From Dehalococcoidia bacterium (GTDB taxonomy: Bacteria > Chloroflexota > Dehalococcoidia > Lucifugimonadales > Lucifugimonadaceae): a stretch of 64,000 bases of DNA. The stretch lies in the NCBI GenBank assembly GCA_965203505.1, contig OZ241880.1, forward strand, positions 2,858,206 through 2,922,205, in the 5' to 3' direction. Position 1 is the first letter of the stretch, and every line of letters starts with the position of its first letter. The position numbers and the translations under genes were made by a program. Positions 42,644-57,642 of this stretch are shown here, piece by piece. A model generated the notes under the pieces. The model searched no databases, was not told the origin of the DNA, and worked only from the letters and a program-made list of their open reading frames with translations.

Positions 42644-45600
42644 CTGAACTTCCTCAGATTTACACTGCGCCGGATCTCGGGCGAAGGAACGCTTTTAATA
42701 GGCGCATTTATCGGGTCTCTGATCACCGCAACTGTTGTCGCCGGTGCACCCGTGTACCTTCGCACGCTCGAACGCGCCGGCGTTCAAGACACGATCGACT
42801 CTGCCGACAGTACCTACACCCACCTTCAAGTGAGCACAAGGTGGCTACCATTGGAAGTCGGCAAATACGTCGCGGCGAACGAATCGCTAGCCGCCGCCCA
42901 GGAAGAATATCTTGACGGTGCTTTCACGGGCGATGCGTCCCTGATAAAAACACGTCGTGCCAATTGGGGCAAGCAAGGCGAAGGATTGCGCCGGCACAAC
43001 GAAGCCTCGCGGGCAATGTTCTTGTCGATGACCGGCATCGACGATCGCATCGTGTACATCGACGGTCGCGCACCGTCAAATCGTCTCGTTTACTCCGAGA
43101 ACGTTCCCACCGTCGAGGCCGCTATCGTTTGGGATCGCGCATCACGGTTCGACATCCGAATCGGCGATGTCATCGAAACCGTCCCGGAAGCCCGCGGCAT
43201 CGGTCTCGTCAATGTCACCATCACCGGAATCTTCACTGTTCCCGATCCGTCCGACGACTATTGGGTCGGACTATCGGACCCTATAGTTCGCCCGATGCCG
43301 ATAGTAGATGGGCGCGAACCACCAATCGTGATGCTGGTTCATCCTTCCGTGATGCTGAACACGGTGGCCGAAGCCAACGCCGGGTTGCCCGCCGATTTCA
43401 GTTGGTATCTCTACGTCGATACCGACTACTTCAAACTTTTGAACCTCAACGAATCCATCAGCAGGCTCACAGAATTCGAAGAAAGGATCGGTATCGAGAT
43501 CACGCGCGCCGACGTGTTGACGATCCTCGATTCGCGGTTGAATTCGTTGCAACGACGGATGTTGTTCGCTCGAATACCGATGTTGCTATTGGCCGCGTTG
43601 GCAATCACATCGATCGCCTACTATCTGTTCATGGTCGCCGGCATCATCGCCCGGCGTCGATCCCTGGAAACATCGATGCTGCGCAGCAGAGGCATCACAG
43701 TTTTGCAGGTGATCCGCTCATACGCGATCGAAAGCGTGTTGATAGCCGGAGTGCCGGCTTTAGTCGCGCCAATCGTCGCCGTCGGCTTGGTAGCATCCCT
43801 CGGGCTGCTGCCCGCATACCAAAGCGTCAACGAATCACTGTTCCTGAATGTCGAATTTGCTTGGCAATCATGGATCTGGTCGATCACCGCAGGATTCGCA
43901 GTCTTCGCGATATTGCTGCTGCCGGCCATACTCGGCACCCGCCGCGGGATCATCGACCAGTATCAGTCGGAGGCACGACCAGAACGCGCACCACTTTTCC
44001 AGCGCTACTACTTAGATGTCATTTTCCTCGTGATCGGTTCACTCGTCTGGTGGGAACTCACCACTAGAGGCACGGTCATCGCCTCGACCAGAGAGGGCGA
44101 AAACTCCGCTGACATCACGCTGCTGTTCTCACCCGCAATATTCTTGCTCGTCGTCGCACTCCTGTTTATGCGTCTCTTCCCGATCCTGGCGCAAATCATC
44201 GCGGTCGTCGGATCCAGATTCCCATCCGTTGAGGTGACTCTCGGACTTTGGCGGCTTCGCCGTAGCCCGTATTGGTACGTCTGGCCGGTTTTGCTGCTGG
44301 TTCTGGTCTCTGGCTTGGGTGTGGTTTCTGGCACTCTGGCTTCAACTCTCGCGCGAAGCACGGAAGAACAGATCCTCTACGAATCGGGAGCCGATTTCCG
44401 GTTTGTACCGACCCAACCGCCGAGCAATGAAAAAGTTGAAGCATCTCGAAACATCGATGGCGTCGTCAACGCCACACAGGCGTTCAGAGCTTCCGGTCGA
44501 TTCGGCACCACGGCACTGGGATTTCAGTTCAATCTCCTCGCCGTCGACTCAGACATATTCGCCCAAACCGCTTGGTTCAGAGAAGATTTTTCGGAGACCG
44601 AGTTCCAAGAGCTGACCTCGAAGATCGCCGTCGAGGTTAAACCTGAACCTATATTCCTGCCGCCCGACACCGTCAAACTCGGTGCATGGGCTAGAGCCGA
44701 GCCGAGGGTCGAAAATCTGTTCCTTTGGTACGTCATCAAAGACGCCAGAGGACGTTCGAGAACTATCACCCTCGGGCAGATAGAAGGCGAGTGGCAACAG
44801 CAGGTTGCAGAACTTTCGAGCAAGTTCACCGAACCCGCTCAGATTGTGTCGGTGCAGACCTTCATGCAAGCGGGGCCCGACGGAGCTGAGCCTACCGTGG
44901 TTTTCATCGACGACGTTTACGCCGAAAACAGCCAAGGAGAGAGATTCATCCTCGCTGATTTCGACGGTTCGGAAGAATGGACCGGCATGCCGACTTCCAA
45001 CGGCCTCGACGTAACTTTCGGCATTTCAGATGAACCCGACGGACTCGTTGTCGGGGTGCCCGGTGATCGTGGGCCGTCAGTCGCTCGAATCGAGATGGAC
45101 CGCGGCAACGATCAAGGCGTTAGAGGTATCTATCGAACCGCGACCGGCGAACCGCTGCCCGTGATCGCCAGCGATGCATTGATGTTCTCGACAAACACCG
45201 ATGTCGGATCGAAATTTATCGTTCAAATCAACGGAGGATACTTGCCCGTCGAGATCGTCGACACCGTGACATACTTCCCGACGTTGAACCCCTCACGCGC
45301 ACCGTTCATGGTTTCGAACGTCGAATCGACTATCGATTTCCTGGAGTTGCGTGGCTTGACGGCTCAAAGACCCAACGAACTTTTCGTCTCGATCGAACCC
45401 GATATGCACGCTTCTGCGCTGCGCGACTTGCGTGAAGTTCTCGGCTTCGGCGCGTTGACCGACCGCGCCAGCCTGCTTGAAGATTCAACTGTAGACCCAT
45501 TAGTAGTGGCAGGATGGCGAGGTATCAGTATCGTCTCCATTCTGATGGCTGGTGTCGCCGCAGCTTTCGGTTATATGACCTATCTTGCCGCGCACGCTTA

Positions 45601-45934
45601 CCGCACCAAAAAAGAATCGGCCCTGCTATCGAGTATGGGAATGAAAACGTCTTCATTCGGCGTGTTGGTGTTGATCGAACATGCCATGGTGGCCCTGCTC
45701 GGAATGGGCATCGGGATCGCTAGCGGTTGGTACGTGAGCCGTCTCGCGGTCAGCAGTCTGACGTTCACCCAATCGGGCGGCGAACTCTTACCACCTTTCG
45801 TGATGCAGACGAACTGGGTCCCTGTAGCGATTCTGGCCGCTGTCATCATTGGCGCGACGCTCATCGCCGTTTACACCATCATGCGCCAATACCGCACTTT
45901 GCCGATACACGAGTTGACACGCGACGCGAATTAA
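42644..45934 (+). CDS. Large double-FtsX-domain ABC permease 1 (MacB/BceB-like, about 10 TM)
   Basis: The ORF track starts at GTG 42752, but the in-frame upstream codons (after TAA 42629-42631) encode NFLRFTLRRISGEGTLLIGAFIGSLITATVVAGAP, the TM1 that matches the N-terminus of permease 2. The only start-like codon there is CTG at 42644. Two FtsX modules are separated by large extracytoplasmic domains. Confidence 0.75.
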   Translation: MNFLRFTLRRISGEGTLLIGAFIGSLITATVVAGAPVYLRTLERAGVQDTIDSADSTYTHLQVSTRWLPLEVGKYVAANESLAAAQEEYLDGAFTGDASLIKTRRANWGKQGEGLRRHNEASRAMFLSMTGIDDRIVYIDGRAPSNRLVYSENVPTVEAAIVWDRASRFDIRIGDVIETVPEARGIGLVNVTITGIFTVPDPSDDYWVGLSDPIVRPMPIVDGREPPIVMLVHPSVMLNTVAEANAGLPADFSWYLYVDTDYFKLLNLNESISRLTEFEERIGIEITRADVLTILDSRLNSLQRRMLFARIPMLLLAALAITSIAYYLFMVAGIIARRRSLETSMLRSRGITVLQVIRSYAIESVLIAGVPALVAPIVAVGLVASLGLLPAYQSVNESLFLNVEFAWQSWIWSITAGFAVFAILLLPAILGTRRGIIDQYQSEARPERAPLFQRYYLDVIFLVIGSLVWWELTTRGTVIASTREGENSADITLLFSPAIFLLVVALLFMRLFPILAQIIAVVGSRFPSVEVTLGLWRLRRSPYWYVWPVLLLVLVSGLGVVSGTLASTLARSTEEQILYESGADFRFVPTQPPSNEKVEASRNIDGVVNATQAFRASGRFGTTALGFQFNLLAVDSDIFAQTAWFREDFSETEFQELTSKIAVEVKPEPIFLPPDTVKLGAWARAEPRVENLFLWYVIKDARGRSRTITLGQIEGEWQQQVAELSSKFTEPAQIVSVQTFMQAGPDGAEPTVVFIDDVYAENSQGERFILADFDGSEEWTGMPTSNGLDVTFGISDEPDGLVVGVPGDRGPSVARIEMDRGNDQGVRGIYRTATGEPLPVIASDALMFSTNTDVGSKFIVQINGGYLPVEIVDTVTYFPTLNPSRAPFMVSNVESTIDFLELRGLTAQRPNELFVSIEPDMHASALRDLREVLGFGALTDRASLLEDSTVDPLVVAGWRGISIVSILMAGVAAAFGYMTYLAAHAYRTKKESALLSSMGMKTSSFGVLVLIEHAMVALLGMGIGIASGWYVSRLAVSSLTFTQSGGELLPPFVMQTNWVPVAILAAVIIGATLIAVYTIMRQYRTLPIHELTRDAN

Positions 45935-45940
45935 ATCGAG

Positions 45941-48900
45941 ATGCGCAGCACGATACAACTCATGCTCAAACGCACAATCGCGAACTGGCGATTGTTGTCG
46001 GCCGTAATCATCGGCTCCGTCCTCGCAGGCACCATCATGTCTGCCACCGTTGTCTATTTCGAATCCCTCAGGGACATCGCGCTCCAGAAGGAGTTGGCAG
46101 ATCAAAATCCCGCCGACCTCGACATACTCATCGAAGCCGATCAGACTCCGATCAACAACGAAACGCACGCGGAACTCACCAGCTCTATGGAGGCCTTGCT
46201 GCTCGCCCGCGTCGGGAAGTTCACCACGCAATACAACCGCGCCATGCGAAGTTGGACCTTCTTTGTCGATGAACCTCCCGAACTGGTTCCGATGGGCGAG
46301 TGCCCTTGCAGGCCGACAGTCGCAGAACCCGATTCCTTCAACGAACGCGACGAACCATTGATCGAGTGCGATTGCCGCCGAATTCAATGCTTGACCGTGC
46401 CGGACGAACCGCACAGCATCGATGTCACCCAAGGGCGATTCCCAGAGATCAACGCCGAGCCTGCCCCCGGCTCCGATCTGACGATAGAAGCATTGCTCGA
46501 CGAGGACGCATCCGAACTTTTTGATCTCGAACTCGGCGACGTGATCCCGGCACGTCCTCACTGGGACGAACAGAACCTCAACGTCAACATCCGCCTGGCT
46601 GGCATCTACGAACGGGCACATCCCGAAGACCCAGAGTGGAGGATTTTCGACCAAGCGTTCGGTTCCCGAAGCACAACTTTGGAGTTCGCACAGTTCATCG
46701 TGCCGCAGCAAGCGATGCTCGAAACCCTGGGCGTCTATTTCCCCAACATGGGCGCGGAATACGCATGGTTCCTAGACGTTGAGCCGACCACGATCCACGC
46801 AACCGACACACAAGAGATCCGCCAAACACTCGAGATCACCGAAAACGAGCTCAGATCGCAGGTCGACGGATTCGTGCTGGATACCGAGCTCGACAAAACA
46901 CTGCTCCGGTACGAGATCGAACTCTTCTTTAACCGGTTGCCAATGTTCATCGTCCTGATCCTGATCGTCTTGGTCGTGGTTTACTACACCGCCACGCTCG
47001 CCGGACTTCTGATTGAGGCACAATCTGCCGATGTCGCTCTGCTGAGAGGACGCGGCACAACGTCAAGGCAGTTGTTATTGATGTTTGCGGTCGAGACGGT
47101 GATAATCGCAGCTTTCGCCATAGTCTGCGGTCCGTTCCTCGCCATCTGGGGCGTTTCATTCCTCGGCACGTTGCCATTCTTCGGCGAACTTAATGCCGGT
47201 GAAGCCCTGCCCGTGAACCTGACGCGCAGCGTATACGTCATGGCTGCCATAGGTTCGGTAATGACCATGATCGCGCTCATGATCCCGGCATTTCGAGTTA
47301 CGCAACAAGGCGTCATCGCCGAGCGCGCTGGGCGAGCCAGACCCCAGAGATTAGCCTTCATCCAACGCTACTACCTAGACCTAGGATTTCTGGCTGTGGT
47401 CCTGTTTCTTTTCTGGCAACTCACCAGACAAGGCTCGTTCGTGGCTAACGACCTATTCGGCGAAACCACCGTGAACCAAGTGATACTAGCAGTTCCAGCG
47501 CTCTTCCTAGTCGCCGCCGGCGTCGTATTGCTGCGGGTCTTCCCGCTGGCAATGGATCTACTCGGAAGATTGATGACCACCGGTATCGCTTCGAGGATCA
47601 TCTCCCCCGCAGTGGTGTTGGGAATATGGCAGATGGCGCGCAACCCAGCCCACTACTCCCGGGTTTCGCTTCTCTTGATACTGACCGCTGGTTTGGGCGT
47701 GTTCGCCGCAAGCTTTGCCGCAACCCTCGAGCGCAGCGCCCGCGATCAGGTCCTCTACCAAACTGGCGGCGAAATCCGCGTGCCCGGAATTTCGAATCGG
47801 CCCGGCGGACGGTCGTTCAATCTCGAAGAGGACCTCAAGAGCATCAAAGGCATCGAGGACGCCACCACAATCTACCGTCTGCGCGGTTCCTTCACCGCTG
47901 GATTCAACTTCGATCAATTCTCAGTCCTAGCCGTAGACCCCGACGAAATCAGCGGCATAGCATGGCGACGTGAAGACTTTACCGACGACGACTACGCAAC
48001 AACATTCCAATCGATAGCGTTCGATTCGGACGAGGGTATACCGCTGCCAGAAGACGCACGGTTCATTACCGCCCGTGTAAAGCCGTTATTCCCGATGCAA
48101 GAGGTGCGATTCGTCGCCCGACTCAGCGACGCCAACAATCGGTTTTACAGCGTCGATTTAGGCAATCTGTTCCCTGAATCGCGTTCACGAAACCGATTCC
48201 CGTGCGTTCTCGAATATGCAGACTCCGAAAACGACGAGTTCCCGTTGCCTTCATGGTGTCGCATCGGCACGTCCCTGCAACCAGCGCCGTTCGGAAGGGA
48301 ACGCGTCCTGCTGCCTGTCGGCCCACTCAAGCTACATTCGATCGGCGTTTCGACTTTCGACGGATCGCTGAGAAGCGGTGCCGTCGACATCGACGACATC
48401 TCCACCATCAGCAACGACGGCACCAAGATGTACCGTCTCGAATTCTTCGATGGCGAATCCGGCTATACATGGAATCTGATGAGACCAACATCAGAGGCTT
48501 TTGCCGATACGCTCGATCCATCGCCTTTGCCGCCCGAAGAGGCCGAAAATCCGGGCATAATGCGACTGCGCTGGGCTGCTGGCTCCTTGAACGAATTCCG
48601 CGGAATCTCATCCGGACGCACTATCGAAAACATCCCGGTGTTGGCGAGCGAGTCACTGCTCGACAAGATCGGCGCAAGAGTCGGCGAAACAATCGGCGTC
48701 TCGATCGACAACGAAAGAACCTCCCTCGATATCGTCGGAGTCATCGACTATTTCCCGACACTCAACCCAGAAGAGAGCAGCTTCGTCGTCATGGATTTCG
48801 ATGCTGCCCACAACTTGGTCAACGCCCGGCGCCACACCGGCGAACGCGTCGCGAACGAAGCCTGGCTCAAGACCGAAGCCGGAACGCCATCTATCGAACA

Positions 48901-49486
48901 GCTAGAGATGATGAAGGACGAAGCCGACGGCTCTCGCCTTCGATACACCGCCACGTCTTCAGTCGAACGCAACATCGATCTGTTACGCCTAAGGTCTGGT
49001 CCCATTAACGACCGTTTGGCACTGTTGGCCGGCGTGAGCGTCGATCCGTTGGTCTCCGAAGGTTGGAGAGCGCTGCTAGGCGTCGCGTTCGTTACCGTTC
49101 TGATAGTGAGCGCAATCGGATTCGTCGTCCATACACGCGTCGCGTTCCGCCGCCGCCTCGCCGAATTCGCACTCCTGAGGACCATCGGACTATCGATGCG
49201 TCAGCTCCTGCTGCTCATATTGCTCGAACAAGTGATCGTGGTGGGAGTCGCCGTCGCGATCGGCATCTTCATGGGCACTCGCCTAGGCGACACGATCATT
49301 CCATACCTCGCACGTTCCGGCCAAGACGCCAACGTGGTGCCGCCGATGACCCTTGAAATATACTGGACTGGGTTCGCGACCACGTTCGGATTGCTCGCCA
49401 TCGTATTCGCAGTGGTCATCGCAATCAGCCTAGTTTCCGTCTACAGCATGGCTATCCATCGAGTGATGCGCATCGGAGAAGCCTAA
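45941..49486 (+). CDS. Large double-FtsX-domain ABC permease 2
   Basis: 1181 aa. MRSTIQLMLKRTIANWRLLSAVIIGSVLAG..., two FtsX-type 4-TM modules, and a Cys-rich first extracytoplasmic domain (ECPCRP...ECDCRRIQC). Confidence 0.8.
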   Translation: MRSTIQLMLKRTIANWRLLSAVIIGSVLAGTIMSATVVYFESLRDIALQKELADQNPADLDILIEADQTPINNETHAELTSSMEALLLARVGKFTTQYNRAMRSWTFFVDEPPELVPMGECPCRPTVAEPDSFNERDEPLIECDCRRIQCLTVPDEPHSIDVTQGRFPEINAEPAPGSDLTIEALLDEDASELFDLELGDVIPARPHWDEQNLNVNIRLAGIYERAHPEDPEWRIFDQAFGSRSTTLEFAQFIVPQQAMLETLGVYFPNMGAEYAWFLDVEPTTIHATDTQEIRQTLEITENELRSQVDGFVLDTELDKTLLRYEIELFFNRLPMFIVLILIVLVVVYYTATLAGLLIEAQSADVALLRGRGTTSRQLLLMFAVETVIIAAFAIVCGPFLAIWGVSFLGTLPFFGELNAGEALPVNLTRSVYVMAAIGSVMTMIALMIPAFRVTQQGVIAERAGRARPQRLAFIQRYYLDLGFLAVVLFLFWQLTRQGSFVANDLFGETTVNQVILAVPALFLVAAGVVLLRVFPLAMDLLGRLMTTGIASRIISPAVVLGIWQMARNPAHYSRVSLLLILTAGLGVFAASFAATLERSARDQVLYQTGGEIRVPGISNRPGGRSFNLEEDLKSIKGIEDATTIYRLRGSFTAGFNFDQFSVLAVDPDEISGIAWRREDFTDDDYATTFQSIAFDSDEGIPLPEDARFITARVKPLFPMQEVRFVARLSDANNRFYSVDLGNLFPESRSRNRFPCVLEYADSENDEFPLPSWCRIGTSLQPAPFGRERVLLPVGPLKLHSIGVSTFDGSLRSGAVDIDDISTISNDGTKMYRLEFFDGESGYTWNLMRPTSEAFADTLDPSPLPPEEAENPGIMRLRWAAGSLNEFRGISSGRTIENIPVLASESLLDKIGARVGETIGVSIDNERTSLDIVGVIDYFPTLNPEESSFVVMDFDAAHNLVNARRHTGERVANEAWLKTEAGTPSIEQLEMMKDEADGSRLRYTATSSVERNIDLLRLRSGPINDRLALLAGVSVDPLVSEGWRALLGVAFVTVLIVSAIGFVVHTRVAFRRRLAEFALLRTIGLSMRQLLLLILLEQVIVVGVAVAIGIFMGTRLGDTIIPYLARSGQDANVVPPMTLEIYWTGFATTFGLLAIVFAVVIAISLVSVYSMAIHRVMRIGEA

Positions 49487-49534
49487 GCATTTCCACCAGT
49501 CGCAAACACCACTGAATTACCGGAGACATCGAAC

Positions 49535-50413
49535 TTGGACGCAAGCAACAGCGAATACATCATCTGCAGCGGCCTCTACAAGATATACAAAGCCGCCGGA
49601 CTCGAAGTCGTCGCACTGCGCGGCTTGGAACTCACCGTCTATGAAGGCGAGATTATCGCAATCGTCGGCGCTTCAGGCTCCGGCAAATCGACCCTTCTGA
49701 ACATCCTGGCAGGATACGATTCACCATCCGCTGGCACCGCCCGTGTCGGAGATTTCGACCTGCTCCACATGACCAGCAAAGAGGTCGTCGACTACCGACG
49801 CCACGAAGTCGGATTCATCTGGCAGGAAACCTCACGAAACCTCTTCCCGTATCTCACCGCCGCCGAAAACGTCGAACTACCCATGGTTCTGACCGGCGTC
49901 TCACAAACCGATCGCAACGACCGCGCGAAAGAGCTTCTAGAGATCGTCGGACTCGGCCACCGCACCGCACACAGACCGGAGCAGCTGTCAGGAGGCGAGC
50001 AGCAGCGAGTCGCCATCGCCGTCAGCCTCGCGAACCAACCGCCACTTTTGCTGGCCGACGAACCCACCGGAGAACTCGATGATCTCACCGGACAAGAAAT
50101 CCTAGACCTGTTCAACGAAGTCAACCAGCAGTTAGGCACCACTATCGTCATCGTCACACACGATCCCGCCGTCGCGACCAGCGTCGGACGAGCCATCACG
50201 ATCCGAGATGGCAAAACCAGCACCGAAACCACACGCAAAGTCTCGTTCCAACGCAGGGTCGGGGGGAGCGCGAGCGACACTGAAGAGTTCCTGATCGTCG
50301 ATTCGTCTGGTTCCGTGCAAATTCCCAGAGACATGCTCGACCAACTCGAAATTAACCGAAGAGTCCGAGTCGCCGTTAACCAAGGAAAGGTGACCCTTGA
50401 ATCAGGTGAATGA
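49535..50413 (+). CDS. ABC ATPase 1 (MacB/LolD-type) with about 65-aa C-terminal extension
   Basis: GASGSGKST, LSGGEQQRV and LLLADEPTGELD. The C-terminal tail is ...FLIVDSSGSVQIPRDMLDQLEINRRVRVAV. Confidence 0.9.
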   Translation: MDASNSEYIICSGLYKIYKAAGLEVVALRGLELTVYEGEIIAIVGASGSGKSTLLNILAGYDSPSAGTARVGDFDLLHMTSKEVVDYRRHEVGFIWQETSRNLFPYLTAAENVELPMVLTGVSQTDRNDRAKELLEIVGLGHRTAHRPEQLSGGEQQRVAIAVSLANQPPLLLADEPTGELDDLTGQEILDLFNEVNQQLGTTIVIVTHDPAVATSVGRAITIRDGKTSTETTRKVSFQRRVGGSASDTEEFLIVDSSGSVQIPRDMLDQLEINRRVRVAVNQGKVTLESGE

Positions 50414-51116
50414 AAACCGCAACGGCGATCCGACCATTGAAGCCATCGAGGTGACGCGCACCTTCCAATTGGCAGGTGAAGACGTTACCGCAGTTAAACA
50501 GCTCAGCTTCAACGTCCACCACGGACAATTCATAGCATTGGTAGGCCGATCCGGGTCCGGCAAAACAACCCTGTTGAACCTGCTCGCAGGTCTTGACCAC
50601 CCGACGACCGGAAAAGTGCTGTTCGAAGGCCGAGACATGGCCGATTTCAACGAGCGAGACTTTATCGAACTGCGCCGAAACCGCATTGGCGTCGTATTTC
50701 AATCATTCGCACTCCTGCCTCTGCTGTCGGCATACGAAAACGTCGAGTTGCCCATGCGTATCGCAGGACTCTCCGCTCGCGAACGTTCCGAACGGACTAA
50801 CGACGCATTGGAGATGGTCGCCCTAGGCCGTCGCGCCCGCCATCGACCTTACGAACTATCCGGCGGTGAACAGCAACGAGTATCCATCGCACGCGCCATC
50901 GCCATGCGACCCGACATCGTACTCGCCGACGAACCCACCGGCGAACTCGACTCAAGCAACGCACAGTCCATATTCGGACTCTTCCGCGAGATGGTCACCC
51001 ACCAAGGAATGTCCGTAGTCGCAACCACCCACGACCACACCCTCCTAGACATGGCAGACCGAATCTACACCATGCAAGACGGCGAGATGGAACTCACCGA
51101 AGATCGGTTGAGTTGA
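50397..51116 (+). CDS. ABC ATPase 2 (MacB/LolD-type)
   Basis: GRSGSGKTT, LSGGEQQRV, IVLADEPTGELD and H-loop ATTHDH. Overlaps ATPase 1 by 17 nt. Confidence 0.9.
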   Translation: MNQVNENRNGDPTIEAIEVTRTFQLAGEDVTAVKQLSFNVHHGQFIALVGRSGSGKTTLLNLLAGLDHPTTGKVLFEGRDMADFNERDFIELRRNRIGVVFQSFALLPLLSAYENVELPMRIAGLSARERSERTNDALEMVALGRRARHRPYELSGGEQQRVSIARAIAMRPDIVLADEPTGELDSSNAQSIFGLFREMVTHQGMSVVATTHDHTLLDMADRIYTMQDGEMELTEDRLS

Positions 51117-51184
51117 GCGACCCGGATGGAGTCGACTGTTGCTGTATTCTTAACAAAGACCAGAGACTAGTCATAGAAATCTGA

Positions 51185-51463
51185 TTATGTCCGCACATCG
51201 TCCCAGTCAGCACGAACACTCTCGACGATCTGAACCTGCAAACCTAGAAGATGCCGTAGAGAGAGCAAATCGTTCTCTGGCAAATCTGCAAATCCTCGCA
51301 GAAGACGGGATTCGAGAAATTCATCGAGCCGTTCGGCTTGGGCCCGAAAGTCCGCACCCGAAACCTCCGCTCCTTGCCGAGGAGGCCAGACGACAGCGAG
51401 AGCGATCATAGTCAACAGTCTTGATATTTGCCTGTTGTAGTCGAAATCTGATCCTGGAGTCAT
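51185..51463 (-). CDS. Small conserved hypothetical protein, paralog A1
   Basis: MTPGSDFDYNRQISRLLTMIALAVVWPPRQG...LRGFADLPENDLLSLRHLL... aligns end to end with the ORF at 54796..55107. The start was set by that alignment. Confidence 0.5.
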   Translation of the reverse strand: MTPGSDFDYNRQISRLLTMIALAVVWPPRQGAEVSGADFRAQAERLDEFLESRLLRGFADLPENDLLSLRHLLGLQVQIVESVRADWDDVRT

Positions 51464-51531
51464 TACGCCGATTATAGCCCCGACTCCAAGGGCATATTTT
51501 CTCAAGCAACAGGCAAGATAGATACGATTCG

Positions 51532-51610
51532 CACACTCCTTGACATGGCCGACCGCTTCTACACAATCCAAGACGGCGAGATGTAGCTAACCGAGGACTG
51601 GTTGACCTAA
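51532..51610 (+). pseudogene. Decayed copy of the 3' end of the ABC ATPase 2 gene
   Basis: cacactccttgacatggccgaccgcttctacacaatccaagacggcgagatgtagctaaccgaggactggttgacctaa aligns to 51037-51116, with a 2-nt deletion and a premature TAG. Confidence 0.7.
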
Positions 51611-51666
51611 GGAGCTTAAACCGGAACAAAACCGACCGGCGACCCACGGATCTGGAGAGGCCTGGT

Positions 51667-54084
51667 TTGAACCAAATCGAAAAGCTGATTGCCGAGAACG
51701 CGGCGTTGCGCGAACGGCTGTCGAAACTCTCCGAAATCGGCATACGGATCAACGAGAGCCTGGACTTCGACACCGTGGTACAACGCGCCTTGGACTCCGT
51801 ACGCTCCCTGACCGGCGCCCGCTACGGGGTGATGACGTTACTTGACGACGCGGGACGCGCACAGGACTTCCTGTCCTCGGGGATGAGCGGCGAGGAGGCG
51901 GAATGGCTATGGCAGACACCGGGCGGTGAGGAGATTTTCGAGCGGCTGGGCAGCATCTCCGAACCCCTGCGAATTCCCGACCTGGTCGGCTACGTCAGGT
52001 CCCTAGGATTCGCTGAGTTCCGGTTGCCCCTGCCCACCGAGCCGGCTTACCCCTTCCTAGCAACGCAGATGTTCCTCGGCAACGAGCGGCTGGGCAATAT
52101 ATTCCTGACCGGGCATGAGGGAGGGCTGGAGTTCAGCCGAGAGGACGAACAGACCTTGGTGATGTTCGCATCGCAGGCGGCGCTTGTCATCGCGAACGCA
52201 CGCCGACACCGCGAGGAACGACGGGCACGCGCCGACCTGGAGACACTCATCGATACCTCCCCGGTCGGCGTGGTGGTATTCGATGCAAGCACCGGAAACA
52301 TTGTTTCGATCAACCGTGAAGCCGCACGCATCGCTAAGAACCTGTGGTCACCCCCGCTCCCCCGAAATCAATCGGTCGAAGAGGTGCTCAAAACCGTCAC
52401 GATCGTGCGCGCCGACGGTCGCAAGTTCTCCATAGACGAGGTCCCGATGTCCGATCTGCTGAAAAACGCCGAGACGGTCCGCGTCGAGGAGGTCGTTCTA
52501 AAGGTCCCCCACGGGCGCAGCGTGACCACGCTCATCAACGCGACACCGATCTTCGACACCGAGGGAACTGTCGAGTCATGCGTGGTGACATTGCAGGACC
52601 TGACGCCGATACAGAACCTTGAACGACTGCGCGCCGAATTCCTCGGAATCGTCAGTCATGAACTGAGAGCACCACTGACCGCGGTCAAGGGTTCGGCTAC
52701 GACGCTGATCCAAGCATTCGACGATCTCGAGACTGCCGAGATGCTCCAATTCTTCAAGATCATCGACGAGCAGACGGACCGGATGCGCGACCTTATCGGC
52801 GAGCTTCTACAGGTCGCACGAATCGAGGCCGGTACACTCTCCGTGCGACCGGAACCGTTAGAACCAGCTGATCTGATCGATGAGGCCAAGAAACGATTCC
52901 TCAGCGCCGGCGGCAGAGACAACATCGCCATCGAACTCGATCAATACTTGCCCAGAATCATGGCCGATAGACGCCGCATCGTTCAGGTACTGAACAACCT
53001 TCTAAACAACGCCGAGAAATTCTCGCCCGAACCCACACCCATACACATAAATATCGGGCGCAAGGAGCAGTACGTACAGATTGCCGTAACCGATCACGGT
53101 CAAGGCATTTCGACAGACGCCCTGCCTAACCTCTTCGCAAAGCTCGCACGTCACGCCACCAGCGAAAATGGAGACCAGATCGGAAGAACCGGACTCGGAC
53201 TCCCAATTTGCAAAGGGATAGTGGAAGCCCACGGAGGACGAATATGGGCCGACAGCCAAGGGCCGGGCACCGGAGCCAAATTCTCGTTCACGTTGCCAGC
53301 GTTTCAAGAAGCCACGACGAACGGTTCGGTCCAACAGGACGTCGTGTCTTCTGACAACGCTCAAGGTGCAGGGAAACGAGACCTGGGGCGTATTCTGGTC
53401 GTTGACGACGATCCTCTGGTTCTAAGGCAGGTGCGCAACACACTCAACAAGGCCGGATACGCGCCACTCGTCACCGGAGACCCTGAAGAAGTGAAGAAAC
53501 TCATCATCGAAAATCAACCCGACCTCATACTGCTAGACCTGCTATTGCCCGGTACCGACGGCATCGAGTTGATGGAACGTATCTCCGACACTGTTAACGT
53601 GCCCGTCATCTTCTTGTCCGCTTATCGCCAAGACGAAGTTGTCACCAAGGCATTCGAACTCGGCGCCGCCGACTACATCGTGAAACCTTTCTCAGAATCC
53701 GAACTGGTCGCACGCATCGGTGCTGCCTTGCAAAAGCGGACCACGTATCAGATGCCCGTTATGCCCGAACCGTACTACCGAAAGGGACTGTCCATCAACT
53801 TCGCAGGGCATGAGGTGACCATTGACGGACGACCAGTCGATCTAACTGCAACCGAAGCGAAACTCCTCTTCGAGTTGGCGGCCAACGCCGGAACCGTCCT
53901 CGAATACGAAGACCTCCTCCAACGCTTATGGGGCCCGAAACGAAAGCAGGGACGTGGGCTCGTACGCACCGTCGTCAAACGACTTCGGCAGAAAATCGGC
54001 GAGGATGCCAGGAAACCAGAGCACATATTCACCGCATCCGGGGTCGGATACCGGATGATGAAAGCCGACACCAACGGCGACTGA
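51667..54084 (+). CDS. Single-polypeptide two-component system: GAF-PAS-HisKA-HATPase-REC-OmpR/PhoB winged helix
   Basis: 805 aa with no TM segment. H-box SHELRAPLTAVKG, N-box NNLLNNAEKFS, G-box GLGLPICKGIVEAHGG, REC ILVVDDDP...DLILLDLLLPGTDG, and wHTH LTATEAKLLFELAANAG...VKRLRQKIGE...GVGYRM. TTG start follows ggagagg. Confidence 0.88.
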   Translation: MNQIEKLIAENAALRERLSKLSEIGIRINESLDFDTVVQRALDSVRSLTGARYGVMTLLDDAGRAQDFLSSGMSGEEAEWLWQTPGGEEIFERLGSISEPLRIPDLVGYVRSLGFAEFRLPLPTEPAYPFLATQMFLGNERLGNIFLTGHEGGLEFSREDEQTLVMFASQAALVIANARRHREERRARADLETLIDTSPVGVVVFDASTGNIVSINREAARIAKNLWSPPLPRNQSVEEVLKTVTIVRADGRKFSIDEVPMSDLLKNAETVRVEEVVLKVPHGRSVTTLINATPIFDTEGTVESCVVTLQDLTPIQNLERLRAEFLGIVSHELRAPLTAVKGSATTLIQAFDDLETAEMLQFFKIIDEQTDRMRDLIGELLQVARIEAGTLSVRPEPLEPADLIDEAKKRFLSAGGRDNIAIELDQYLPRIMADRRRIVQVLNNLLNNAEKFSPEPTPIHINIGRKEQYVQIAVTDHGQGISTDALPNLFAKLARHATSENGDQIGRTGLGLPICKGIVEAHGGRIWADSQGPGTGAKFSFTLPAFQEATTNGSVQQDVVSSDNAQGAGKRDLGRILVVDDDPLVLRQVRNTLNKAGYAPLVTGDPEEVKKLIIENQPDLILLDLLLPGTDGIELMERISDTVNVPVIFLSAYRQDEVVTKAFELGAADYIVKPFSESELVARIGAALQKRTTYQMPVMPEPYYRKGLSINFAGHEVTIDGRPVDLTATEAKLLFELAANAGTVLEYEDLLQRLWGPKRKQGRGLVRTVVKRLRQKIGEDARKPEHIFTASGVGYRMMKADTNGD

Positions 54085-54175
54085 AAGCCGACCGCGCCCG
54101 ATAGATTTTTCCGCCCCCTCGCCGCTGACGCCATATCGGGAGGTTCGCACAACCACCCTCATTCCGGCGAAAGTG

Positions 54176-54212
54176 AAACCCTCCCCCTTGCGCATCAATG
54201 GGGAGGGTTTTG
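54176..54212 (+). terminator. Rho-independent terminator of the sensor-regulator gene
   Basis: AAACCCTCCCC-ttgcgcatcaat-GGGGAGGGTTT followed by T. The stem is 11 bp. Confidence 0.6.
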
Positions 54213-54601
54213 ACAACAGCGCTATTCCAATTCACGGTGTCGTTTTAGCGTTATTCCCGCGCTCTCCCACTGAAGAGCAATCAACATGTTCCCGTATGTT
54301 GACGCGCATATGCCATAAAATTTTTTGGCGCTTAGCCAGAGAACTAGGCTCGCTCTAACTGATGAAGGGCGCTCGTACCCCCCCCCCTATTTTGAACAAA
54401 TGAGGCATTTTAACTGCTCCACAACGAGTCCGCCGCAGGTCCATTCGTCCGCGACAACATGCTGGCTAACATTCTTACTCAACCATATTATCGAATCATA
54501 CATAATTTGCGCGAACATGAAACTCCATAGATCAGAGTGAATTGCCTTAACTAAAGTACCTCGTACCCTCCAAGTCGTGGTCTACCGGCTCAGACCGCGA
54601 A

Positions 54602-54753
54602 AGTCCATATTCGGCCTCTTCCGAGAGATGGTCACCCACCAAGGAATGTCCGTAGTCGCAACCACCCACGACCACACCCTCCTAGACATGGCCGACCGCA
54701 TCTACACCATGCAAGACGGCGAGATGGAACTCACAGAGGATAGATTAAGTTAA
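54602..54753 (+). pseudogene. Intact-frame duplicate of the last 152 nt of the ABC ATPase 2 gene
   Basis: Collinear with 50965-51116 without indels. About ten substitutions, all synonymous or stop-to-stop (gga/ggc, cgc/cga, gca/gcc, cga/cgc, acc/aca, gaa/gag, cgg/aga, ttg/tta, tga/taa). A GTG at 54577 could initiate a 58-codon ORF through it. Confidence 0.8.
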
Positions 54754-54795
54754 TTGCCGTTAGGTCGAATTAAGGTGGTATGGTTGCATTAGAAG

Positions 54796-55107
54796 CTATT
54801 CAAGGATTTCGGACCATGTCTGATATTCATCCCAATTCGCCCGAACGTCTCCGACAAGTTGATCCAAAACTCTTAGAAGATGCCGTAGCGCGATCAAATC
54901 GGGCTCTGGAACGTCTGCAAACCCTCGCAGAACGCGGAGTTCGAGAAGCTCTTCAATCCTTCGAGCCTGATCGGGGAAATTCTCGCCAGACGGGGGATTC
55001 CCCTGTTCCGGAGGCCAAACCACAGCAAGAGCCGTCATCATGAGAAGCCTGCCGATGAACTGGTTGTAATCTGGTTCGGAATCCGGCTCTAAGGTCATTA
55101 ACGACAT
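54796..55107 (-). CDS. Small conserved hypothetical protein, paralog A2
   Basis: MSLMTLEPDSEPDYNQFIGRLLMMTALAVVWPPEQG...LRGFADVPEPDLIALRHLL... Lies 26 nt downstream of the otsA/B fusion on the same strand. Confidence 0.5.
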   Translation of the reverse strand: MSLMTLEPDSEPDYNQFIGRLLMMTALAVVWPPEQGNPPSGENFPDQARRIEELLELRVLRGFADVPEPDLIALRHLLRVLDQLVGDVRANWDEYQTWSEILE

Positions 55108-55133
55108 TATACGCGTTGCGGCGCGTTTGGCTG

Positions 55134-57317
55134 TTATCCCGCCTTGGCTCGTAGCAACGCGGTCAACATCTCCCGCAAGGATCGCGGCGATGCGACCGCA
55201 ATCTTTGCCGCGGAACTCCCTGAGCCTATCTTGACTGTGTGGACGTTCTGGTCAACGTGGATAAACAGGTCTTCATCGGTACGGTCATCACCCGTCGCCA
55301 ACTCGAAATCGAATGGACCGAAACGATCCAGCACGATGTCATACGCCCGCGCCTTCGTTAAACCCTGTTGTCGAACCTCCACCACCTTCGAACCGTGCAT
55401 CACCTGCACCGGTTCACCGCGCAGGTTGTTCTCCAAGAGCGAAACCAGCTCCAAAGCCTGCCAGTTGCCCAACGTCTCCTCCGTCTGGCGGTAGTGCCAC
55501 GCCAGCGAAGTCTGCTTCTCCTCGATCCTCGAACCCGGTGTCCGAACCACGTAGTCATCCAGAATTCCGTGCACGTCCGATTTCCAACTCGTGTCCAACA
55601 CACCCAACAGACTCCACTCCTTTTTGCCCGCTTCCTTCATCCACGCACCATGTTCCGCTATCAGATCTATCGGACAGTCATCGAACCACTCTCCAAGCGT
55701 CTCATGGTCGCGCCCGCTGTTGATAAAGACCTTCACATCATCGCGGTTTCCGAAACGATGAAGCAAACCGAGTATCTCCGGCGTAGGAGTCGCGTCTTCA
55801 AACCGATCGCAAAACTCCCTGAGTGATCCGTCGTAGTCCAACATCACCAGCGAACACTCAGACGACCTGAAGTCGTTCGCCAGCGTATCTGCGAGCACCG
55901 TGGAAGTCAGCATTGGAGGCACTCCCATAGGCGTGCTCTCAGCACCCTCCAACGATGTCATGAAATCCCTCACCCAGCGGTGCAAGTCGTTCTGAACGAT
56001 CCGGCTATGCATCGGCATCATCCGTTCATTCCGCTCGCCGAGACTCATCTCAAGAGCACGTTCCAACTGATTCGCAGTCCCTTCTATATCCCAAGGATTG
56101 ACCCGCAGCGCTTCACCCAGTTCGCTGACCGCACCCGCGAATTCACTGATCACCAACGTCCCGCCGCCATCATCGCGACAAGCCACATACTCTTTCGCCA
56201 CCAAGTTCAGACCATCTCGAACCGGCGATACGAAACAGACGTCGGCAAGACGATAGAGCGCGCAGAGCTCCTCCTGCGTCACCGTCTGGTACAGATAGTT
56301 GATCGGACTCATAAGCGGCGAGCCGTGAATGCCGTTGATCTCGCTGACCCGCCTCTCAACCTCGCCCTTCAAGTCTTGGTAGGTATGGATGCCAGCACGC
56401 GTCGGAACCGCCAACTGCAAGAACAACACACGTTCCGCCCAACGCGGTGACCTATCCAACAACCGCTCAAAAGCCTGTAGCTTCAGCAGCAAACCCTTCG
56501 TGTAATCCAACCGATCAACACCCAGTATCACCTGTCGGTCACCCACGTTCCTCTTCAACTGCGTCAGAAATCGCTCCGCGCCCTGCGAATAGGCTTTCTC
56601 GCGGAACTCCTCCGTATCGATCCCCAAAGGATGGGCCTCCACGCGCACATTGTGGTCCCGCATCCTGACCGTCCCGCCCTGCGCCTCGATGCCTAGAATC
56701 CGACGCACGCTTCTCAAGTAGTTGTACGCGTAGTCGTACGTGTGCATCCCAATCAGATCGGCTCCCAACAACCCACGCAGTATCTCGACGCGCTGCGGCA
56801 GGATCCGGAACGTCTCATCTGCTGGGAAGGGGATATGCAAAAAGAACCCGATGCGTACATCCAGCCCGCGCTCCCGCAACATCCGGGGCAGCAGCATCAG
56901 ATGGTAGTCATGAACCCAAACCGCATCGCCCGGCTCCGCAAGCTCAAAAACCACATCCGCGAAACGCTGATTCACCCGCTTATAAGCCTCGAACTGCTCC
57001 GGGACGTATGAACCGAACTCCGTGAAGTAGTGGAACAACGGCCAGATCGCATCGTTCGAATACCCGTCGTAATAACCGCGGTAATCATCGTCGTCGAGAT
57101 CGACCGGCACAAGGTTGCTTTCTTCGAGTTGTTTCCTAACCTCATCGCTTGGATCCGCACCCGGATATCCCACCCAAAGTCCGCCAGAACTCTCGTGCAA
57201 AGGGCGCAGGCCAGTCACCAGCCCGCCCACACTGTGCGTCAGTGTCTGTTCGCCCGTCTCAGGATCGACGCCGATTGTCACCGGCAGTCGGTTCGATACC
57301 AGAATCGGACGTCTCAT
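55134..57317 (-). CDS. otsA: Bifunctional trehalose-6-phosphate synthase / trehalose-phosphatase (OtsA-OtsB fusion)
   Basis: Starts [13 protein letters not shown] (GT20 N-terminus). The C-terminal HAD domain has [10 protein letters not shown]. The ORF-track 5' extension overlaps the upstream moaD-like gene and is rejected. Confidence 0.88.
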
Positions 57318-57378
57318 CGATGAATTCCCTGTCTCGCCGCCGCGCTCATCACCTTGCCAAACTGGTTCACCGCCGTCA

Positions 57379-57642
57379 TCAACCGCCCGATATCGCGGGC
57401 ACGAAATGGACCTCTGTGTCAGGTTCCAACGGCTGCAACAAGCCTTGCCGCGTCGCCGCATAGCCCACGACAGCCGCAAGACCAGGCTTCAATCGACCGT
57501 CCTGCAAGAGATGTTCCGAAATCCCCGGATACGACTCTTCGAGATTGTTGACGACATCCCCCAACGTCGCGCCCGGCACATCCAACTCGCCCTTGCCGCC
57601 AGCGAAACGGCGCAACTCATACGGCAAAAAAACCTTCGCCAT
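57379..57642 (-). CDS. MoaD/ThiS family sulfur-carrier protein
   Basis: 87 aa ending in ...VHFVPAISGG (C-terminal Gly-Gly). RBS gggagg. Confidence 0.75.
   Translation of the reverse strand: MAKVFLPYELRRFAGGKGELDVPGATLGDVVNNLEESYPGISEHLLQDGRLKPGLAAVVGYAATRQGLLQPLEPDTEVHFVPAISGG

Follow-up and report, generated by a model that had tools for sequence, protein, structure and literature searches.

Gene content of the locus

The window analysed here, a stretch of 64,000 nucleotides of a Dehalococcoidia genome, carries two large FtsX-type permeases of one operon, two ABC ATPase genes and a variable locus that is bordered by ATPase2 on the left and by otsAB on the right (Table 1). Three modules lie in tandem between these borders, in the order ATPase2-A1, tail3-HKRR-spacer and tail2-A2-otsAB, in which the tails are copies of the 3' end of ATPase2. 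The intact gene end (tail1) and the orphan copy tail2 have a spacing of 3637 bp, and the unit contains A1, a decayed tail and a one-polypeptide sensor-regulator (HK-RR), as the initial annotation had claimed.

Table 1. Features of the ATPase2-otsAB locus and its flanks (positions in the window)
Feature	Coordinates	Strand	Evidence and remarks
Second large FtsX permease, same operon as the next	42752-45934		
FtsX-type permease, 1181 aa	45941..49486	+	Pfam FtsX; conserved left flank, collinear with L001, L003, L006, L008, L093
ABC ATPase 1, 292 aa	49535..50413	+	Pfam ABC_tran 2e-33
ABC ATPase 2 (ATPase2), 239 aa, intact	50397..51116	+	Pfam ABC_tran 1.8e-37; conserved left border of the variable locus
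tail1, last 152 nt of the intact ATPase2 gene	50965..51116	+	Alignment with tail2
A1, small helical orphan protein, A1-type allele	51185..51463	-	57% aa identity to A2; 63% to P0127 of L092
TATAAT box, 7 nt upstream of the A1 ATG	51471..51476	-	Conserved in all eight aligned A loci; putative function
tail3, decayed ATPase2 3'-end remnant, 87 nt	51524..51610	+	Alignments; best relative L092
Promoter-like TTGACA-16-CACAAT in tail3, ~100 nt upstream of HK-RR start	51540..51567	+	Consensus scan; not significant against shuffles; speculative
HK-RR, sensor kinase and response regulator in one polypeptide, 805 aa, intact	51667..54084	+	Pfam GAF-PAS-HisKA-HATPase_c-REC-Trans_reg_C
Non-coding spacer	54085..54601	.	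First ~50 nt match the L006 HK-RR 3' flank
tail2, orphan repeat of the final 152 nt of ATPase2	54602..54753	+	Alignment; coding potential intact, no gene body upstream
A2, small helical orphan protein, A2-type allele, 100 aa from conserved ATG	54796..55098	-	95% aa identity to P0001 of L001
TATAAT box of A2	55106-55111		Alignment
otsAB, trehalose-6-phosphate synthase/phosphatase fusion (OtsA-OtsB)	55134..57479	-	Pfam Glyco_transf_20 + Trehalose_PPase; conserved right border

The HK-RR protein shares 67-70% amino acid identity with the genes directly 3' of ATPase2 in the related loci L006, L008 and L093. The spacer behind it contains a terminator-like hairpin at approximately 54177-54212 and otherwise has a GC content of ~48%; blastn and tblastx against all fetched loci give no homologue of its segment 54135-54601. 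A1 and HK-RR are the only ORFs in 51117-54601, and Pfam reveals no recombinase there. Additionally, there is no Rfam match in 50800-55300 and no tRNA in the window.

A1 and A2 are convergent to the ATPase2 copies that precede them, and had been described as far more diverged than the tails. The comparison agrees with this description: the two proteins are 57% identical with saturated dS, whereas the tail protein is 100% identical, and the proposed dN/dS calculation yields ~0.2 for the pair (~0.2-0.3 for A1), as for real paralogues. Their true starts are likely the ATGs at 51463 and 55098. The A1 frame has a premature TAA at 51185-51187, beyond which it runs on as SDFYD to the canonical TAG at 51167-51169. 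The TATAAT box so close to the A1 ATG suggests a leaderless transcript. Neither protein has a Pfam match, the family comprises only 7 cluster representatives in 1.84 billion proteins, and no match is present in plasmids or phages. The AlphaFold model of A is a helical bundle (pLDDT 74) that matches no PDB fold at E <= 0.001. Duplication of the flank as a property of A insertion was rejected, because the dispersed A copies in L005, L089 and L091 are not flanked by gene-end repeats.

Three copies of the ATPase2 3' end

The initial annotation had reported that the last 152 nt of ATPase2 recur at 54602-54753 without indels, with about ten differences that are all synonymous or stop-to-stop. This is borne out by an ungapped alignment of tail1 and tail2 (93% nucleotide identity), in which exactly 10 differences are observed (50978, 50987, 51056, 51062, 51098, 51101, 51105, 51107, 51110 and 51115). 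Nine of them fall in eight sense codons and are synonymous without exception, the tenth changes TGA to TAA, and both copies encode the same 49 residues. Chance is excluded as the source of this pattern: an all-silent outcome occurs in none of 200,000 simulations of 10 random substitutions, and the analytic estimate is ~1e-6. The left edge of the repeat is sharp, with no more than 1-2 nt of similarity to the left of 50965/54602. Translation of tail2 from the GTG at 54577 is unlikely, as inspection finds no Shine-Dalgarno-like sequence before it.

The 49-residue tail is 100% identical in L001 and 92-94% identical in L003, L006 and L008, and judging from the identity with L001 the functional copies are under strong purifying selection. 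The differences between tail1 and tail2 are clustered, with 6 of the 10 in the last 19 nt (Fisher p = 4e-4), and the longest identical blocks measure 68 and 35 nt. This clustering probably reflects a site constraint and not necessarily a breakpoint; the tail middle is almost invariant across all eight lineages compared. A breakpoint at 51063-51097 was not accepted as established because every lineage concentrates its differences at the tail ends. Co-transfer of the tail with the module type was likewise rejected as the cause of low tail divergence, since pS is uniform (~0.4) over lineage pairs whatever their module type.

The third copy, tail3, is degraded. Positions 51532-51610 align without gaps over 79 nt at 80-81% identity and contain a premature in-frame TAG (51584-51586) as well as the residue changes I>F, M>I, R>W and S>T. 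Compared with L092, the best relative, homology extends as far as 51524, and the 5' margin contains one 1-nt indel. The remnant and its premature TAG are thus as first annotated, but the 2-nt deletion also assigned to 51532-51610 is absent and the 1-nt marginal indel is found instead. Five of about ten changes relative to the nearest functional relative are missense or nonsense, the pattern to be expected of a fragment that would be older and unselected. Two tail3-specific substitutions bring the promoter-like motif TTGACA-16-CACAAT nearer to the consensus than in the functional tails.

Module arrangements in related genomes

Related Dehalococcoidia MAGs carry one of the three modules between the conserved ATPase2 and otsAB. 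Only the A2-type gene is present in L001/L002, L003/L004 and L090 (ATPase2-A-otsAB, with neither HK-RR nor a second tail), L001/L002 being two independent assemblies with 84-89% nucleotide identity. Only the A1-type gene is present in L092, where P0127 sits between ATPase2 and otsAB, and HK-RR directly follows ATPase2 in L006/L007, L008 and L093. otsAB adjoins A in L001, L003, L090 and L092 and lies beyond the HK-RR module in L008. The comparison across related genomes that had been proposed for this locus therefore identifies a module-exchange site with the same flanks. The composite arrangement is known from one genome (n=1), from assembled sequence, and no orphan tail is present at the eight other loci compared. 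A contig search with ATPase2, dominated by the generic Walker-B peptide pattern, gave no close relative and no further orphan tail among the matches listed, the best of which has 74% amino acid identity. A search of metagenome contigs with a degenerate 36-nt tail pattern recovered one contig, L093, of the HK-RR type.

The modules of the window are collinear, piece by piece, with these single-module relatives. Window positions 51532-54081 align as a single block to L093, from its ATPase2 end through the intergenic region into HK-RR, and 51533-51941 align likewise with L006. tail3 and the intergenic region behind it follow the order of the ATPase2-to-HKRR junction in L006, L008 and L093. Positions 50965 and 54602 both map to position 10536 of L001, and deletion of 50965-54601 yields exactly the L001 order, which makes the suggested excision through the direct repeats plausible; a variant of this genome with the unit excised was not observed.

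Two junctions delimit the modules. At 54601|54602, ATPase2 homology starts abruptly beside a spacer that has no homologue at any ATPase2 locus, and at ~51523|51524 the region upstream of A1 abuts mid-ATPase2 sequence. Microhomology amounts to at most 1-2 nt at the former, and ACGA at 51524-51527 is possible at the latter.

Divergence from L001

Synonymous divergence between the window and L001 was determined by NG86. The dS values of the flanks are 0.62 for ATPase2 (98% amino acid identity), 0.65 for FtsX, 0.73 for ATPase1 and 0.67 for OtsAB, and that of tail1 (0.46) is similar to the rest of its gene, in contrast to 0.14 for tail2 and 0.087 for A2. tail2 differs from the L001 tail at 4 of 152 positions, all synonymous, and its 3' flank is of identical type. 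For the tails by themselves the comparison is 4 (tail2) versus 11 (tail1) differences, a contrast weakened by the generally reduced synonymous divergence of the tail. That the distal tail had evolved in a functional ATPase gene was part of the initial interpretation. It agrees with the match of tail2 and A2 to L001, where the ATPase2 end and the A gene are contiguous, and the silent-only differences indicate that tail2 was recently part of a working gene. A2-type genes have low dS in every comparison (0.09-0.2), so part of the recent-import signal may be intrinsic to the A gene. Synonymous divergence of otsAB from L001 is mosaic (pS 0.11-0.72), which indicates frequent recombination among these lineages. 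No donor genome was found among the relatives, the nearest of which are at dS of at least 0.09.

Origin of the orphan tails

We consider it reasonably probable that the tails are scars left when recombination added modules through one illegitimate end, in the manner of homology-facilitated illegitimate recombination (HFIR), within a region where homologous recombination is mosaic. The usual event in the ATPase2-otsAB interval would be a module swap by homologous recombination in both conserved flanks. Here, modules would have been added and not replaced, by incoming DNA that was homologous on one side and formed an illegitimate joint on the other, through HFIR or an equivalent process, and each added piece would open with a short truncated 3' end of the donor ATPase2. 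The 87-nt tail3 would head the HK-RR module, having been orphaned earlier and decayed since. The 152-nt tail2 would head the A2 module and may have resided until very recently in the working ATPase2 of an L001-like lineage, which would explain why it differs from the resident tail at silent sites only. The tail3 junction would have formed first, and the tail2 junction, or its refreshment, later. RecA recombination has length requirements for homology, and on this ground the orphan tails are probably short because longer ATPase2 homology would allow a scarless double crossover.

The events are reconstructed and not observed; we infer the mechanism, the polarity (the side of the anchor) and the order of events. 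Either the ATPase end served as the homologous anchor, or donor fragments were anchored on the otsAB/A side and the ATPase end is just where they were truncated. If the anchor was on the left, the illegitimate joint would lie upstream of the homologous crossover, a geometry that calls for a circular intermediate or for two sister chromosomes. With the anchor on the right, L001-like sequence should continue into otsAB, whereas the last 60 otsAB codons are highly diverged from L001 (pS ~0.7). The initial proposal of cassette recombination anchored on the conserved gene end is therefore retained in part: modules are exchanged at the locus, but the middle tail is broken and the distal tail pristine, and classic C-terminal displacement anchored on a gene end predicts the opposite order of decay.

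A single homologous crossover of Campbell type within the 152-nt tail would remove the topological problem of the linear left-anchored models. A circle carrying an ATPase2 end, A1, tail3, HK-RR and the spacer would integrate and leave the tail duplicated on both sides, as integrative elements restore target 3' ends. The insert is indeed flanked by direct repeats of the 3' end of an intact target gene, and the perfect 68- and 35-nt blocks are common to both tails. Additionally, tail1 departs from tail2/L001 in its last 19 nt, which adjoin the divergent A1, and those of tail2 are L001-like and adjoin A2, exactly the pattern to be expected from a crossover near 51063-51097; the clustering is also accounted for by a site constraint that all lineages share. 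The absence of an integrase or other recombinase from 51117-54601, and of a tRNA or Rfam element, argues against integration. The tail of the circle would be within 3% of the resident over 133 nt, yet A1 is ~35% diverged, so that the donor would have to be mosaic. When L001 is taken as the outgroup, 3 of the 4 left-part differences fall on the functional copy and 1 on the orphan, the reverse of what simple post-duplication drift predicts. Integration of this type is thus unlikely.

A similarly low probability is given to an old composite, in which the stacked arrangement would be ancestral, single-module forms would arise by deletion between tails, and tail2 would be kept pristine by repeated overwriting from tail1 or from homologous DNA of relatives whose tail and A adjoin each other. 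The exact L001 form results when the segment between tail1 and tail2 is deleted, and the ATPase2-HKRR form would result from a deletion between tail1 and tail3. Loci of different module type are interspersed in ATPase2 similarity (L008, of the HK-RR type, is closest in protein to L092, of the A1 type, at 95.8%), mosaic recombination is evident, and the L001-like patch ends within the A2 N-terminal region, as a conversion patch would. The dS values of HK-RR (0.91-0.95) and A1 (0.79) against their nearest relatives are no larger than the backbone dS of the same genomes, so neither need be a recent import. However, orphan tails could not stay in frame and recombination-competent over the depth of the clade (dS > 1), and tail3 is broken at a much smaller divergence. 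Conversion from tail1 would also have missed the last 19 nt, which hold 6 differences, and the eight other loci are free of orphan tails.

Simple tandem or segmental duplication followed by divergence was rejected, since divergence is uneven along the copies: the tails share 93% of their nucleotides and 100% of their residues, protein identity between A1 and A2 is 57% at saturated dS, and the sequence between the genes is unalignable. An assembly chimera of co-occurring strains with different modules, joined through common tail sequence, is hardly credible even though the source is a metagenome-type assembly and relatives with alternative modules exist in nature: such a chimera would switch inside common sequence, whereas no sequence is shared to the left of 54601|54602 and hence no common-k-mer graph path explains that junction, the 10 differences preclude a collapsed repeat, the placement of HK-RR on a single 3.1-Mb contig suggests a long-read assembly with reads that would span the 3.6-kb unit, and mis-joining cannot produce tail3 and its decay.

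Comparison with known systems

The same kind of process as additive recombination at this locus is described in PMC5361080 for the T6SS effector-immunity arrays of Vibrio cholerae and for Rhs loci; on HFIR it cites de Vries & Wackernagel 2002 and Prudhomme et al. 2002, and on Rhs C-terminal displacement Jackson et al. 2009. For conjugation, HFIR is shown in PMC3240628.

In T6SS arrays, Rhs loci and the orphan cdiA-CT/cdiI modules of CDI systems, as here, a conserved gene supplies homology beside a variable region, where incoming alternative modules join the resident one instead of replacing it. Truncated pieces of the 3' end of this gene persist as orphans in direct orientation (here tail3 and tail2), and single-module relatives show that ordinary replacement is commoner. 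The locus differs from these systems in that no toxin or immunity function is present, the modules being a regulator and an orphan small protein. The variable part lies wholly downstream of the ATPase2 stop codon, and the 49 tail residues are identical where the known systems have a variable C-terminal tip. The small gene A is convergent, unlike the co-oriented immunity gene, and the order of decay (middle oldest, distal freshest) is opposite to that of displacement by proximal insertion. ATPase2 matches only ABC_tran and related P-loop models in Pfam and has no toxin domain. The likeness to orphan modules of polymorphic systems that the initial annotation drew is thus formal only, and the locus is not a polymorphic-toxin system.

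With HFIR in naturally transformable bacteria the locus would share one homologous and one non-homologous end, by which foreign DNA is gained next to a conserved anchor. Both single-module arrangements that such an event presupposes, of donor and of recipient type, exist in relatives, and neither the homologous crossover point nor the side of the anchor could be located. Sharp junctions between parentally unrelated sequences, a criterion of HFIR, are found at 54601|54602 and ~51523|51524. However, microhomology at the joint is at most 1-2 nt as against the criterion of 3-10 nt, and the geometry of tail1 and tail2 duplicates, instead of deleting, recipient-type sequence, which is not the textbook outcome. 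The process is here deduced from sequence, for an uncultured member of the Dehalococcoidia.

Integrative elements at gene 3' ends (att duplication) likewise leave a directly duplicated 3' end at both ends of the insert and an intact target, and their excision would restore an empty site. In contrast to such elements, the locus contains no integrase, excisionase or mobility gene, its repeats are 152 nt long at 93% identity and not a short identical core, and the insert is composite with a decayed tail inside. No conserved att-like core could be defined in the tails, and no second example is present among the loci and contigs searched.

Implications for gene-neighbourhood evolution

A more speculative reading, to which we assign little probability, is that the ATPase2 3' end is a dedicated, recombinase-independent landing pad for shuffling regulatory modules (HK-RR and the A genes) behind the ABC transporter. 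The orphan tails would then be kept by co-option, tail3 as the promoter of the isolated HK-RR, through a TTGACA-16-CACAAT motif that tail3-specific substitutions created, and tail2 as the 3' UTR of the convergent A2 transcript or as its antisense partner. The antisense fold of the tail is stable (z = -2.6). If the landing-pad reading is true, this fold and the low synonymous divergence of the tail in all lineages would reflect a function at the nucleic-acid level.

The locus is a clear if unremarkable instance of a known process and not a new type of genetic system. It provides a clean, datable snapshot of gene-neighbourhood rewiring in an uncultured marine and probably host-associated lineage of the Dehalococcoidia. 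Alternative modules are exchanged between lineages at one locus, and occasional one-sided recombination would stack modules and leave gene-end scars. A purely synonymous orphan fragment is thereby a practical marker of very recent recombination. The locus also indicates that a one-polypeptide two-component regulator, normally tied to an ABC transporter operon, is separable from the operon by a small inserted gene. Additionally, the HK-RR unit could be lost through deletion between the two direct repeats, a point that bears on strain-level variation in metagenomes.

A repeated gene end in the window

A 152-nt ungapped direct repeat with a spacing of 3637 bp was found by a repeat search and by reading of 50,000-56,000: the end of the intact ATPase2 gene (tail1) recurs as an orphan copy (tail2), and similarity stops abruptly to the left of both 50965 and 54602. 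Of the 10 differences between them, 9 are synonymous (in eight codons) and one changes the TGA stop to TAA; both copies encode the peptide SIFGLFREMVTHQGMSVVATTHDHTLLDMADRIYTMQDGEMELTEDRLS. A silent-only outcome was obtained in 0 of 200,000 simulations (ten random substitutions each), and the analytic estimate is ~1e-6, which rules out chance. The initial annotation of this repeat as encoding one peptide with about ten synonymous or stop-to-stop differences is confirmed. Six of the differences fall within the final 19 nt (p = 4e-4), a clustering for which site constraint accounts equally well because every lineage concentrates changes at the tail ends.

The third copy (tail3) has a 79-nt gap-free core (51532-51610, 80-81%), and comparison with the best relative extends the homology as far as 51524, with a single 1-nt indel near its edge. 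The premature stop described earlier is present as an in-frame TAG, whereas the 2-nt deletion is not, as the core is ungapped. Approximately 10 changes in 78 nt, five of them missense or nonsense, separate tail3 from its nearest functional relative, which suggests that it is the older scar.

Features of the region, with dS between the window and locus L001 (Nei-Gojobori) and the module (piece) to which each is assigned
Feature	Position	Strand	Piece	dS	Assignment
FtsX permease	45941-49486			0.65	Pfam
ABC ATPase1	49535-50413			0.73	Pfam
ABC ATPase2 (intact)	50397-51116		1	0.62	Pfam
tail1	50965-51116		1	0.46
A1	51185-51463	-	1
tail3	51524-51610		2
Intergenic region, 56 nt			2
HK-RR, single polypeptide GAF-PAS-HisKA-HATPase_c-REC-Trans_reg_C	51667-54084		2		Pfam
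tail2	54602-54753		3	0.14
A2	54796-55098	-	3	0.087
OtsA/OtsB fusion (otsAB)	55134-57479	-	3	0.67	Pfam
Further A locus, L005	10001-10246
Further A locus, L089	6049-6345
Further A locus, L091	10001-10246

The transporter operon (42752-51116) encodes two FtsX-type permeases of very large size (1060 and 1181 aa) together with two distinct ATPases, the frames of which share 17 nt (50397-50413); this heteromeric MacB-like layout is unusual and is conserved in all relatives. The fused sensor-regulator HK-RR, of the OmpR type, has a very large number of family members, with 7990 database proteins at E <= 1e-30. Apart from itself, the nearest homologue shares only 70% identity, and a paralogue (P0051, 58% identical) lies on the same 3.1-Mb contig. 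Inside tail3, ~100 nt ahead of where HK-RR starts, is a TTGACA-16-CACAAT site (51540-51567), the match of which is improved by two tail3-specific substitutions relative to the functional tails. Sites of this type are no more numerous in the region than expected from shuffles (not statistically significant), and use of the scar as the present promoter of HK-RR is raised as a possibility.

One module in relatives, three in the window

Contigs of related Dehalococcoidia were reached via homologues of the small orphan genes A1 and A2. An A2-type gene lies between ATPase2 and otsAB in L001/L002 (two independent assemblies with 84-89% nucleotide identity to the window), L003/L004 and L090, and an A1-type gene occurs in the order ATPase2-A-otsAB in L092, the protein of which (P0127) is 63% identical to A1. 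In L006/L007, L008 and L093, HK-RR directly follows ATPase2 and precedes LRR-protein genes, beyond which otsAB is found in L008. No second tail is present among these relatives. The ATPase2-otsAB interval is a variable locus with alternative modules. Very large, eukaryote-like LRR and WD40/RCC1 repeat proteins occur in and around it (L006 10753-18298; L008 13131-16313; L003 2458-5964), which hints at a host-associated lifestyle of the clade.

The window holds the three modules in tandem. In alignments with L093 (51532-54081), L006 and L008, piece 2 matched in one block from the ATPase2 end through the intergenic region to HK-RR, which indicates that tail3 is the remnant of the ATPase2 gene natively preceding the regulator. 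From L001 position 10536 on, piece 3 and L001 are collinear; window position 50965 also maps to this L001 position, so that deletion of 50965-54601 would give the L001 arrangement. In the 517-nt spacer between pieces 2 and 3, only a hairpin and the initial ~50 nt, which match the 3' flank of HK-RR, are recognisable, and blastn and tblastx gave no homologue of the remainder in the loci retrieved.

The hairpin after HK-RR is terminator-like (54177-54212; AAACCCTCCCC...GGGGAGGGTTT, then T's), and similar G/C-rich palindromes flank the A genes in L003, L089 and L091. A run of 9-10 C (54378-54387) lies in the otherwise AT-richer, homologue-free part of the spacer.

Silent divergence of the gene ends

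L001 has the same 49-residue tail, and the identity of this tail is still 92-94% in genomes whose nucleotide identity to the window is only ~77%; functional ATPase2 tails are under very strong purifying selection. The dS values of tail2 and A2 are far below those of the flanking genes, which suggests that they share a far more recent ancestry with the contiguous ATPase2 end and A gene of L001 than the surrounding chromosome does; tail1, at 0.46, behaves as the resident gene. The differences between tail1 and tail2 probably arose in two working ATPase2 genes, and tail2 would have been orphaned, or last replaced by homologous sequence of a lineage in which it is functional, too recently for decay. 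The silent differences and the tail2/A2 dS values support the proposal that tail2 evolved under selection in a functional ATPase gene. However, the signal of recent import should not be overstated, because A2-type dS is low in all comparisons (0.09-0.2) and pS of the last ~80 ATPase2 codons (~50890-51116) is reduced (~0.4 vs 0.6-0.7) in 28/28 lineage pairs, whatever module lies downstream. On its antisense strand, the tail gives a more stable fold than shuffled sequences do (z = -2.6, 3/200).

The A gene family

A1 and A2 share 57% protein identity and have no Pfam match. Alignment with six database homologues places the conserved frame on the minus strand, and translation probably starts from ATG at 51463 (A1) and 55098 (A2). 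In 8/8 A loci aligned, a TATAAT precedes the ATG by exactly 7 nt (51471-51476 and 55106-55111, minus strand), which implies leaderless transcripts. The A genes have this self-contained promoter-like box, and some copies have a hairpin at the stop codon (GACTAG...CTAGTC in A1 and L005). A1 ends at a TAA (51185-51187) seven codons ahead of the normal family end, and its frame continues as SDFYD up to the canonical TAG (51167-51169); the TAA has the appearance of a nonsense mutation of recent date, by which the final residues are lost.

The family is very rare (7 cluster representatives in 1.84 billion proteins), is found in at least four unrelated genomic contexts, and gives a helical structure model with no structural match in the PDB. 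The low dS among A2-type copies, compared with 0.6 to >1 for their host backbones, suggests that this small gene has been spreading recently or is constrained at the nucleotide level.

Origin of the tandem arrangement

Modules would usually be swapped at this locus by a double homologous crossover, whereas here they would have been added, with one end of the incoming DNA meeting homology and the other joining illegitimately. This process, homology-facilitated illegitimate recombination (HFIR), is set out in PMC3240628 and has been invoked for sequential displacement at T6SS and Rhs loci (PMC5361080). Additive recombination appears to be the most economical reading. Homologous recombination between these lineages is evidently frequent, because the synonymous divergence of otsAB (55134-57317) from L001 is mosaic, with pS swinging from 0.11 to 0.72 in 40-codon windows. 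That the orphan tails are short (87 and 152 nt) agrees with the view that more extensive ATPase2 homology would have given scar-free replacement.

If the anchor were on the otsAB/A side, the tails would be truncated donor ends, and the order of decay fits; however, the last 60 otsAB codons are not L001-like, so either the donor would have been unlike L001 in that stretch, or a later conversion ending inside A2 would have produced the patch. If the anchor were the ATPase2 end, classic C-terminal displacement would predict the youngest module in the proximal position and the oldest orphan in the distal one, whereas the distal copy of the tail is pristine and decay is seen in the middle copy. Additionally, the illegitimate joint would lie upstream of the crossover, which needs a circular intermediate or sister chromosomes.

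A less likely reading, an ancient composite followed by differential deletion and conversion, has in its favour that dS of HK-RR and A1 against their nearest relatives does not exceed that of the backbone, but orphan tails could not remain intact over the depth of the clade. A strain-chimeric assembly is unlikely, since the 54601|54602 joint has no shared left sequence at which an assembler could switch and the decay of tail3 cannot come from an artefact. An integrase-mediated element is unsupported: the structure resembles an island inserted in a gene 3' end, but no recombinase is encoded in the insert, and searches for tRNAs and known RNA elements gave no hit. Plain duplication is excluded by tails that are 93% identical next to A genes with saturated dS.

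The likeness to orphan modules of polymorphic systems, drawn in the initial annotation, holds for the logic of formation and is formal only; unlike polymorphic toxin loci, this locus has a tail with no variable tip, no toxin domain and a convergent neighbour gene, and is not a member of that class. It is best filed as a further case of what would be HFIR-type additive recombination, at an ABC-transporter/regulator locus of uncultured Dehalococcoidia, and as such is probably a well-documented instance, of modest interest, of an already known evolutionary process.
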